A DNA stretch of 17,334 nucleotides from a virus. Its lineage: Duplodnaviria; Heunggongvirae; Uroviricota; Caudoviricetes. A program made the translations under genes and the position numbers. Location of the stretch: the IMG/VR virus record IMGVR_UViG_2690316086_000006; one strand, given 5' to 3'. This document shows positions 9,107-10,584 of this stretch, piece by piece. Position 1 is the first letter of the stretch, and every line of letters starts with the position of its first letter. Below the pieces are notes generated by a model that was not told the DNA's origin, searched no databases, and was given only the letters and a program-made list of their open reading frames with translations.

Positions 9107-9463
9107 TTATTCAGTTCTGGATTTTGTCGCCCTGCGTATCCGCGCTTTCGCGTTACGTTCAATCTGAATTAACTTTTCTATATTTTTCCGCCTTTCCTGT
9201 TCCTCCTGGCGCAATAGCCTTACATCATCTGCCAGTCTGGTTTCTCTTTTCGCCACAGAGAGCATCCAGTCAAACGGCTCCACAACCGCACCGCAGATTT
9301 TACAGCGGACCTGGCGCTCTTTTTCGTCAACCCGAACAGAGGCGTGATGACAATATGGTCTTTCCGATGGCTCATAAAGAAAATTAACCTGATTACGAGG
9401 GTCATCCTCTTTTACCGGAAATAAAACGATATTGCTTAACTCATCCTCTGGTTTTATTTCCAT
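9107..9463 (-). CDS. Hypothetical protein with putative zinc-binding motif and basic coiled-coil tail (118 aa)
   Basis: Strong Shine-Dalgarno AAAGGAGAGGAGC before the ATG at 9463; YCHH...CKICG motif; 23-nt overlap with the upstream gene. Confidence 0.55.
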   Translation of the reverse strand: MEIKPEDELSNIVLFPVKEDDPRNQVNFLYEPSERPYCHHASVRVDEKERQVRCKICGAVVEPFDWMLSVAKRETRLADDVRLLRQEEQERRKNIEKLIQIERNAKARIRRATKSRTE

Positions 9464-9902
9464 GCTCCTCTCCTTTGATGCGAATGCCAGCGACGCGTAA
9501 TGCGTGTTCTAGGTCAATCAGGTAAAGCCAACTGCCATTTTCTTTAGGTATCATGACATGTCGCTCATCTGCATTTATCGGGTGTCCATATCGAAGGTCG
9601 TAGCGAGTCGGTAATTGAACTTCCCGCGCATCCAGTTCAGCAATACGCTTGCTCCCATCAGAGATAACGCCTTCGTAATACTCACGCTGCTCGTTGAGTT
9701 GTGATTTTGCTTCTTCCAGTCCATCCAGCAAACCAGCGATAATATCCGCTTCCCGATGACGGATATGACGCTTAAACGCAGCAAGAGCCGCATCACAATC
9801 CCGTTCAGCATTTGGGCTGTCCGGGGTAGCCTGATACCACGCCAGCGTCGACTGATAGTTTTGTGCTGCCTCACGAAGCGCCTCATAGTTAACCTCTCTC
9901 AT
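9441..9902 (-). CDS. Ea22-like family protein, second paralog (153 aa)
   Basis: N-terminus MREVNYEALREAAQNY parallels the 7827-8462 protein; ATG overlaps the upstream stop (ATGA). Confidence 0.55.
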   Translation of the reverse strand: MREVNYEALREAAQNYQSTLAWYQATPDSPNAERDCDAALAAFKRHIRHREADIIAGLLDGLEEAKSQLNEQREYYEGVISDGSKRIAELDAREVQLPTRYDLRYGHPINADERHVMIPKENGSWLYLIDLEHALRVAGIRIKGEEHGNKTRG

Positions 9903-10195
9903 CGAGCCACCTCCTGATAAATCACCGCATGCCCCAGTTTCTCCGCCAGTGCCAGCTCTGCCTTAGCGCCCGCTGACCGCTGCCAGCCATTCAGCATGTA
10001 AATCGCATCCACACAACGAATCATTGCCATGCAAATATCCATGTAGTGCGGCTGTGTCAGCCCGTCCGGAAGTACTGCCGGAGTTAAGACGGTATGCCCT
10101 TCCCGTTTCAGTTCCTCTTCCGCCTTGTGAAACGCCTCACGGTTGAAATTTTCATATCCCGTCATTGGACCGGCAATATAAACTCTCACCCTCAC
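9899..10195 (-). CDS. DUF4406 / nucleoside 2-deoxyribosyltransferase-like small protein (GTG start proposed)
   Basis: VRVRVYIAGPMTG motif typical of the NDT-like fold; GTG at 10195 overlaps the upstream TGA (GTGA); the longer track ORF would overlap the upstream gene by 73 nt. Confidence 0.5.
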   Translation of the reverse strand: MRVRVYIAGPMTGYENFNREAFHKAEEELKREGHTVLTPAVLPDGLTQPHYMDICMAMIRCVDAIYMLNGWQRSAGAKAELALAEKLGHAVIYQEVAR

Positions 10196-10584
10196 TCCAT
10201 CACCTCCTGAAAGTTTCCCCGATAGAACGCCAGCACACGCTGCATAACTTCGCTCTGGCGGCACTCACGACAAATTATGTTCTGCCGTCTGTTGTAACGA
10301 CGTATTTCTCCGTCAGGTAACTTTCGAATCAGTGTCGGGTCAGCAGCCTTCTCCGGTGTCTTACGCCATACGCGATACGCCTGCTCTGATGGAAATACCC
10401 CGCAACCAGAGAGCCAGACATCACCACTGGCCGCAAGCGCACCAGATAAACGACGAATAGCGGTCTTACTGACACCCGTTTTATCTGCCAGTTGTCGAAA
10501 AGTTTCTCGTCCGCTCAGGCGCACGAATTCCACAATGCGCGCCTTCACTTCTTCCCGCTCTTCTGGTGTAAATTCTTTTGCCAT
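10192..10584 (-). CDS. Hypothetical HTH-type DNA-binding protein (130 aa)
   Basis: ATG at 10584 with GGAGG Shine-Dalgarno; FRQLADKTGVSKTAIRRL helix-turn-helix-like segment. Confidence 0.5.
   Translation of the reverse strand: MAKEFTPEEREEVKARIVEFVRLSGRETFRQLADKTGVSKTAIRRLSGALAASGDVWLSGCGVFPSEQAYRVWRKTPEKAADPTLIRKLPDGEIRRYNRRQNIICRECRQSEVMQRVLAFYRGNFQEVME

Follow-up and report, generated by a model that had tools for sequence, protein, structure and literature searches.

DUF4406 in the early operon of a lambdoid prophage: a predicted minimal nucleoside 2-deoxyribosyltransferase-like domain and candidate nucleotide N-glycosidase

Four tightly packed genes around DUF4406

The sequence studied here is a 17,334-nucleotide stretch of DNA from a virus of the class Caudoviricetes (IMG/VR record IMGVR_UViG_2690316086_000006), which we refer to as the window. 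Its positions 9107–10584 contain four tightly packed genes, all on the minus strand, one of which encodes a DUF4406 protein of 98 residues. Here, we describe the start, predicted fold, and conserved residues of this protein, and place it tentatively among enzymes that release bases from nucleotides. A preliminary description of the window had named three genes in the interval, encoding a zinc-motif protein, the DUF4406 protein, and a helix-turn-helix (HTH) protein. All three are real, and a fourth gene, for an Ead/Ea22-like protein of 153 residues, had been overlooked. The interval is composed of the following features:

10192-10584, minus strand: winged-HTH protein of the DUF977 family, 130 residues (Pfam DUF977, E=2e-41; PGAP WP_001040234.1)
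10192-10208, minus strand: coupling junction AGGAGGTGATGGA-GTGA, with a Shine-Dalgarno sequence, the DUF4406 GTG (10195-10193), and the DUF977 stop codon TGA (10194-10192)
9899-10195, minus strand: DUF4406 protein, 98 residues (Pfam PF14359, PHROG 355, PGAP)
9441-9902, minus strand: Ead/Ea22-like protein, 153 residues (Pfam Ead_Ea22, E=6e-11, residues 3-66; PHROG 250)
9107-9463, minus strand: protein with a zinc ribbon and a long helix, 118 residues (motif conservation and AlphaFold2 prediction; PHROG 1621, function unknown)

An AGGAGG-type Shine-Dalgarno sequence precedes each start in the interval, and each junction is of a different type. The DUF977 and DUF4406 genes meet in a GTGA, the ATG of the Ead/Ea22-like gene overlaps the DUF4406 stop codon in an ATGA at 9902–9899, and the zinc-ribbon gene overlaps the Ead/Ea22-like gene by 23 nucleotides. 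The genes had been called coupled, which is correct, except that the zinc-ribbon gene is coupled to the Ead/Ea22-like gene and not to the DUF4406 gene, because the Ead/Ea22-like gene lies between them.

Translation start of the DUF4406 gene

The start of the DUF4406 gene had been placed at a GTG overlapping the upstream stop codon, and the PGAP annotation, the N-termini of homologs, and 77 related loci agree with this position. The GTG at 10195 sits 7 nucleotides after AGGAGG, and the PGAP product (WP_001266133.1, 98 residues) begins at the same codon. All 77 related viral contigs keep this first GTG. The final sense codon of the upstream gene differs among these loci (GAG, GCG, GGG, GTG, or ACG), with G always as its third base, and the second in-frame GTG is replaced by GTC, GTT, or GTA in at least 16 of the 77. 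Homologs start with M-[KR]-x-Y-I-A-G-P. Most of the homologs aligned (40 close ones and 70 at greater distance) have a length of about 95–105 residues, and they begin 2–4 residues before Y-I-A-G-P. Initiation at 10195 keeps this motif within the protein, so the start does not remove it. An open reading frame of 121 residues from a GTG at 10264 was rejected, as it overlaps the DUF977 gene in another frame and its extension is present in no homolog. The DUF4406 reading frame is under purifying selection, with a ratio of nonsynonymous to synonymous polymorphism (pN/pS) of 0.19 among 20 distinct alleles.

Family and predicted fold

The proposed family assignment is borne out by a hidden Markov model search with PF14359, in which the protein scores E=4e-37 and 126.9 bits against a gathering cutoff of 22, and the alignment covers profile positions 2–91 of 91. 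The protein also matches PHROG 355 (E=1.4e-47), which is labeled 'nucleoside 2-deoxyribosyltransferase'. The AlphaFold2 model, calculated from a 40-sequence alignment, has a predicted local distance difference test score (pLDDT) of 90 and a predicted template modeling score (pTM) of 0.83. It is built of repeated beta-alpha units with four strands. The anticipated fold of a nucleoside 2-deoxyribosyltransferase (NDT) is present in the model, which matches the structures of NDTs and of the nucleotide hydrolases DNPH1 and MilB.

In a Foldseek search of the PDB, all eight matches with E ≤ 0.001 are NDTs or human DNPH1. The NDTs among them come from Trypanosoma brucei, Leishmania, Chroococcidiopsis, and Bacillus. 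Next, slightly past this threshold, come MilB and BcmB, and TIR domains rank lower. The leading NDT, DNPH1, and MilB matches have a probability of 1.00 and TMq values of 0.71–0.79. The TIR fold and the SLOG fold of ThsA are distant structural relatives of DUF4406. A structure search of BFVD returned phage proteins named NDT or DUF4406. Two structural relatives in BFVD carry the name 'dATP/dGTP diphosphohydrolase N-terminal domain-containing', a hint that they may be fused to a dNTP pyrophosphatase.

The sequence relationship becomes apparent with diverse profiles. PDB searches with the DUF4406 protein and with a profile of 40 sequences gave chance matches only, while a more diverse family profile of 71 sequences matches the T. 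brucei NDT (2a0k) at E=8.9e-5. The protein from the window has no match to the NDT family PF05014 at E ≤ 0.01, whereas actinophage members of DUF4406 do score on it, as shown by gp28 of BaileyBlu (34.9 bits versus a gathering cutoff of 28.8). A narrow DUF4406 profile failed to match human DNPH1 in hhalign. DUF1937, represented by Pseudomonas aeruginosa PA1492 (PDB 1t1j, function unknown), gives a weak Pfam cross-match (E=4e-4). Both families are small stand-alone NDT-like domains, but they have only 18% identity, and DUF1937 is uninformative about function.

The predicted DUF4406 domain has four strands and lacks strand 5 and the C-terminal segment of the related enzymes, which are 130–160 residues long. 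From the model and the profile matches, we conclude that the gene encodes a minimal NDT-superfamily domain with four strands.

Active-site residues

The codons of the residues discussed below are located at the following positions, with their conservation among 137 representatives of 50%-identity clusters:

10180-10178, minus strand: Tyr6; Tyr in 119 and Phe in 18 of 137 representatives (87% and 13%)
10033-10031, minus strand: Cys55; Cys in 93, Asp in 19, and other residues in 25 of 137 (68% Cys, 14% Asp)
9976-9974, minus strand: Ser74; 137 of 137
9958-9956, minus strand: Glu80; 134 of 137 (98%)

Gly76 is likewise retained in 134 of the 137 representatives. The residues that line the pocket of NDTs are nearly invariant in DUF4406 (Ser74, Gly76, Ala77, Glu80, Tyr6, Gly9, and Pro10).

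The NDT-superfamily triad consists of Tyr, Asp or Asn, and Glu; the transferases typically also carry a Pro after strand 2 (PMC12884076). In the alignment with 2a0k, the strand-1 sequence KIYIAGP is identical, Pro39 of DUF4406 corresponds to the Pro after strand 2, Ser74 to the Asp of D-C-G-T-A-F-E, and Glu80 to the nucleophile Glu. Glu80 is positioned where the helix following strand 3 begins, as is characteristic of the nucleophile, and Tyr6 occupies the end of strand 1, where a Tyr or Phe of the superfamily orients the Glu. The third residue of the triad is an Asp or Asn located eight positions ahead of the acidic residue that comes before strand 3. Its counterpart in DUF4406 is Cys55, a position mapped by this spacing rule together with a non-significant hhalign alignment.

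The residue six positions before the Glu separates branches of the superfamily. NDTs hold the 5'-OH of the sugar with an Asp or Asn, while the hydrolases and DmtZ carry small uncharged residues in its place (PMC12884076). Ser74 corresponds to the state of the 5'-phosphate branch. DNPH1 uses E104 as its nucleophile and binds the 5'-phosphate through S98 together with S128' of the partner subunit (PMC10603095). The segment P-S98-L-G-V-G-Y-E104 of human DNPH1, checked against PDB entries, has the same Ser-to-Glu spacing as the S-x-G-x-x-x-E motif of DUF4406. Y24 of DNPH1 is equivalent to F17 of MilB, and this position sets the preference for deoxyribo- or ribonucleotides, as the F17Y substitution switches the preference from ribo to deoxy (PMC10603095). 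A permissive local hhalign alignment with DNPH1, which is non-significant (E=0.036, probability 1.4%) and serves only as an aid to mapping positions, agrees with the fold and pairs Y6 with Y24, C55 with D80, D63 with D88, S74 with S98, and E80 with E104. The second phosphate ligand of the known enzymes is S128' in DNPH1 or Arg23 in MilB. DUF4406 proteins have a conserved N18-R19 pair in the loop after strand 1 and lack the C-terminal extension that bears S128' in DNPH1.

DNPH1 (also named Rcl, a 2'-deoxynucleoside 5'-phosphate N-hydrolase) and MilB and BcmB (N-glycosidases of CMP and hydroxymethyl-CMP) have a Rossmann-like fold in common with DUF4406, as well as the Tyr or Phe after strand 1 and the identically spaced Ser and Glu. 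They differ from it in their length of about 130–160 residues, their five strands, the helical extension that donates S128' in DNPH1, and, in DNPH1, the Asp (D80) at the position of Cys55. There is no significant direct sequence match between these enzymes and DUF4406.

DmtZ, a dAMP N-glycosidase and deoxyribose-5-phosphate transferase of PurZ0 Z-genome phages, is, like DUF4406, a phage-encoded member of the NDT superfamily. Compared by its published description, it resembles DUF4406 in the Tyr6-type residue and nucleophile Glu, the lack of Asp or Asn at the 5'-OH position, the retained transferase-type Pro, and a location among nucleotide-metabolism genes. In contrast to DUF4406, DmtZ is about 145 residues long, has five strands, and has Asn77 as its triad residue. 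It is linked to dutZ and purZ0 in phages whose DNA is modified, and the prophage in the window is without such genes.

The NDTs of PF05014, such as those of T. brucei (2a0k) and Lactobacillus leichmannii (1f8x), are the best structural and profile matches of DUF4406. Apart from the aligned residues described above, they differ from it by a sugar-binding Asp where DUF4406 has Ser, by a general-acid Asp or Asn where it has Cys, and by a C-terminal third that it lacks; the window protein also remains below the PF05014 threshold.

Judged from the alignments, DUF4406 appears to keep the nucleophile, its Tyr or Phe partner, the Ser of the phosphate branch, and the transferase-type Pro, and to have Cys most often as the third triad residue. 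Because position 6 is split between Tyr and Phe and position 55 between Cys and Asp, sub-families of DUF4406 may differ in their substrates.

Distribution and gene context of DUF4406

The DUF4406 family is very large. Its profile matches 18,490 clusters at 50% identity with E ≤ 1e-3, and 6,885 with E ≤ 1e-10. DUF4406 genes occur in 866 of 5,426 complete Escherichia coli genomes and in 511 genomes of cultured phages with proteobacterial and actinobacterial hosts, mainly phages of Arthrobacter, Vibrio, Gordonia, Mycobacterium, and Pseudomonas.

The neighbors of the gene vary. Of 77 loci in close relatives, 49 have DUF977 as the upstream gene and the other 28 have a gene for an unrelated HTH-like protein of 84 residues, and the downstream gene belongs to one of six unrelated families. 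In distant, unrelated phages, DUF4406 lies among small early genes or among genes of replication and DNA metabolism, which include those of Dam and other methyltransferases, an exonuclease, a dNMP kinase, a MazG-like protein, a primase, and DnaQ. A functional module of three genes was considered and rejected, as both flanks of DUF4406 vary in close relatives and in distant phages. The genes of the interval therefore do not form one functional unit, and DUF4406 is an independent mosaic cassette. Among the 49 longest close relatives, a Pfam scan found no recurrent fused enzymatic partner, and the N-terminal domain of Marcoliusprime gp55 matches nothing known.

The labels of DUF4406 proteins are inconsistent and include 'NDT', 'hydrolase', 'dCMP deaminase', and 'MazG-like'. 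Among five phage proteins labeled as dCMP deaminase or MazG-like, four have only a DUF4406 or NDT-type domain according to Pfam. The fifth, MiaZeal gp168, one of three labeled 'MazG-like', has a PRA-PH pyrophosphohydrolase domain and falls outside DUF4406. Stand-alone DUF4406 proteins labeled 'deoxycytidylate deaminase' or 'MazG-like pyrophosphatase' are encoded at L085 2492–2821, L086 2504–2857, L087 2474–2854, and L088 2501–3037. The GenBank records with the mislabeled proteins are those of actinophages and one Pseudomonas phage (OP297545, NC_071022, NC_028953, and OQ594956). The deaminase and MazG labels look like annotation errors.

Proposed activity and alternatives

The best reading of these data is that DUF4406 is an enzyme similar to DNPH1, MilB, or DmtZ, either a hydrolase or a deoxyribose-5-phosphate transferase, that would be made during lytic growth. 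We propose, with somewhat less than even confidence, that this minimal member of the NDT superfamily is an N-glycosidase acting on 5'-phosphorylated nucleotides or deoxynucleotides. A role in nucleotide metabolism, one of two suggested in the preliminary description, is the one favored by the conserved active-site residues. Also in keeping with the proposal are the neighboring replication or DNA-metabolism genes in unrelated phages, the diphosphohydrolase name of the two BFVD relatives, and the purifying selection on the gene. In the proposed mechanism, the 5'-phosphate would be held by Ser74 together with the Gly-rich loop that follows strand 1, and Tyr6 would orient Glu80 and select for 2'-deoxyribose. 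Glu80 would attack C1', which would release the base and leave a covalent deoxyribose-5-phosphate–enzyme intermediate. The intermediate could be resolved by water, as in DNPH1 and MilB, or by another base, as in a phosphodeoxyribosyl transferase of the DmtZ type. The gene would be expressed together with replication genes from the early rightward operon, and translated by re-initiation at the GTG that overlaps the DUF977 stop codon. Given such expression, the enzyme would edit or sanitize the nucleotide pool during lytic DNA replication; that it sanitizes or rebalances the pool is a plain guess. There is a precedent in DmtZ, an NDT-like dAMP N-glycosidase and transferase from Z-genome phages (PMC12884076), and NDTs of PF05014 have been associated with dZ phages in the literature. 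DUF4406 itself had only incidental mentions in a full-text literature search, with no functional study or assay of any member.

Several points weigh against an N-glycosidase of nucleotides. The third triad residue is not conserved as Asp or Asn, having been replaced by Cys55. The missing strand 5 and C-terminal segment supply active-site residues to the neighboring subunit in NDTs and DNPH1, for example S128'. The residue equivalences come from sequence alignments and not from superposition of models. The alignment of Pro39 with a Pro described as conserved in transferases makes it impossible to distinguish a hydrolase from a transferase. It is not obvious what a lambdoid phage whose DNA is canonical would need an enzyme of this kind for, and genes of a pathway of the dutZ/purZ0 type were not found in the prophage of the window.

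Alternatively, DUF4406 might be a true NDT that exchanges bases between free deoxynucleosides for salvage. The label of PHROG 355 and many phage annotations say so, NDTs are the best Foldseek matches, the family profile matches the T. brucei enzyme, Pro39 aligns with the transferase Pro, and phage NDTs of PF05014 with transferase activity exist. We nevertheless regard base exchange on free nucleosides as unlikely, since the Asp or Asn that holds the 5'-OH is an invariant Ser in DUF4406, the state of nucleotide-specific hydrolases, and DUF4406 lacks the C-terminal elements with which NDTs complete their active site. In addition, the window protein falls below PF05014, and three of four new phage NDTs assayed in the study of dZ phages were without transglycosylation.

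Two further possibilities are each a little less probable. First, DUF4406 proteins may be minimal N-glycosidases in which an unusual Tyr-Cys-Glu site serves as a phage counter-measure and not in ordinary salvage, by destroying toxic or modified nucleotides of host defense or by cleaving nucleotide-derived immune signals; we give this idea a small chance. Second, DUF4406 may have degenerated into a catalytically dead domain whose role is structural or regulatory, such as binding a host or phage protein. The truncation to four strands, the loss of the canonical Asp, and the lack of a conserved partner gene would fit a dead domain. Its near-invariant NDT-pocket residues, the strong purifying selection, and the size of the family argue against one and make it unlikely.

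It is more doubtful still that DUF4406 resembles TIR domains or retron effectors and hydrolyzes NAD+, ADP-ribose derivatives, or related substrates, and not dNMPs, in host takeover or counter-defense. The structure would permit such an activity, and NDT-like retron effectors that deplete adenine derivatives have been described in the literature. However, the sequence signal is that of NDTs and not of TIR domains, the S-x-G-x-x-x-E motif and the Tyr are features of NDTs and DNPH1, and the PADLOC models of retron effectors have no match even at E ≤ 1.

Least probable of all is a non-catalytic binder or sponge that would sequester an immune signal (an isomer of cyclic ADP-ribose or a cyclic oligonucleotide). 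Such a role would suit the small size, early expression, and nucleotide-binding fold of this accessory phage protein, and its distant structural kinship to the signal-handling ThsA SLOG and TIR folds. However, a pure binder would have no need of the nucleophile Glu and the partnering Tyr or Phe, which are kept family-wide. The sponge is further disfavored by the lack of matches to PADLOC models at E ≤ 1 (a weak test, as these are models of defense and not of anti-defense), the absence of DUF4406 from the anti-defense literature searched, and its widespread adjacency to DNA-metabolism genes. The earlier suggestion that the protein sequesters signaling nucleotides thus found no positive evidence, and we know of no sponge with an NDT-like fold.

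Neighboring genes of the interval

The DUF977 gene starts with an ATG at 10584, with GGAGG 5 nucleotides upstream. Its product belongs to PHROG 142, labeled 'Ren-like exclusion protein', and gives weak, sub-threshold matches to HTH families at residues 6–59.

The RefSeq name of the 153-residue protein is 'sigma-E factor regulatory protein RseB domain-containing'. PGAP and RefSeq use this name because a coiled-coil-like stretch gives a marginal match to MucB_RseB (23.3 bits versus a cutoff of 22.3). The name is probably misleading, and the Ead/Ea22-like N-terminus is the clearer signal. A second Ead/Ea22-like open reading frame is located downstream:

7827-8462, minus strand: Ead/Ea22-like open reading frame, 211 residues (Pfam E=3.5e-39; incomplete pseudogene in RefSeq)

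The early region therefore holds two paralogous modules of the Ead/Ea22 type.

The zinc motif noted earlier in the 118-residue protein is real, as C38, H40, C54, and C57 are invariant in 29 homologs down to 45% identity. The same homologs have a nearly invariant basic C-terminal helix with the pattern LRxEExxRRxNIEKLIQIERNAKARIRR. This helix, NIEKLIQIERNAKARIRR, is almost invariant across Enterobacterales. The AlphaFold2 model contains a beta-hairpin (residues 43–61) and a single helix of about 55 residues (63–117), with a pLDDT of 74 and low global confidence (pTM 0.38). The protein has a weak match to the TFIIB zinc ribbon (E=1.6e-4), below the Pfam cutoff. Elsewhere, in-frame fusions join it to an Ead/Ea22-like N-terminus (P0269, 202 residues) or to DUF977 (P0307, 201 residues), and the proteins P0309 and P0310 belong to the same observation. 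Based on these fusions in other genomes, the zinc-ribbon protein behaves as a shuffled module of early regions.

The prophage and its early operon

Over the stretch tested, the 17.3-kb window has 100% identity to a lambdoid prophage of many genomes of Shiga toxin-producing E. coli (STEC), including O103 RM8385 and O26 RM10386. According to the RefSeq annotation, with which Pfam scans agree, the genes of the interval are part of one long operon on the minus strand. The regulatory and replication genes upstream of the interval are:

13731-14123, plus strand: cI-like gene, divergent (RefSeq)
13344-13604, minus strand: cro-like regulator (RefSeq)
12910-13347, minus strand: YdaT-family gene (RefSeq)
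between the YdaT-like and lambda-P-like genes, minus strand: replication initiator with DUF1376 and DnaT domains (RefSeq, Pfam)
11359-11820, minus strand: lambda-P-like gene (RefSeq)

The P-like gene is followed by DUF1627, DUF977, DUF4406, Ead/Ea22-like, and other small genes, RusA, and tRNAs. The early-operon label given to the interval is fair, with the gene order running from the cro-like gene through the replication genes to DUF1627, DUF977, and DUF4406. The region is the counterpart of the ren/nin region of lambda. A consensus scan, which as a whole performed no better than on shuffled sequence, gave a plausible pR-like promoter at 13662–13634 and no convincing minus-strand terminator before the interval.

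Further features of the window are:

1320-1492, minus strand: small RNA STnc100 (full-length Rfam match of 104.7 bits), in the late-regulatory region, downstream of the tRNA cluster
2115-2363, minus strand: three phage-borne tRNA genes (Arg, Arg, and Ile; RefSeq)
6046-6608, plus strand: ParD/ParE toxin-antitoxin pair, inside the early operon on the opposite strand
14170-14834, minus strand: HigB toxin gene and, directly downstream, an HTH-domain gene, beside the cI-like repressor gene
16102-16153, plus strand: antisense small RNA DicF (full length, 75 bits), adjoining dicB and ydfC homologs

Transfer RNA genes upstream of late genes are typical of Stx-type lambdoid prophages. The HTH-domain gene downstream of HigB presumably encodes a HigA-like antitoxin. 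The area of DicF, dicB, and ydfC is a remnant of a Qin/Rac-type immunity region at the left end of the prophage.

Implications for the DUF4406 family

The DUF4406 gene is very common and already annotated, as it belongs to the existing Pfam family PF14359 and is named by PGAP. Overall, our results refine an annotation and are not a discovery. New are the confirmed start, the fourth gene missed before, and the evidence against a gene module. Also new is a residue-level case, built from alignments, for grouping DUF4406 with the N-glycosidases specific for 5'-phosphates, with an atypical Cys in the triad. Such a placement would correct the widespread annotation of these proteins as deoxyribosyltransferases. 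If DUF4406 is active, the presence of a base-releasing nucleotide hydrolase in the replication operon of temperate phages whose DNA is canonical would call for an explanation.

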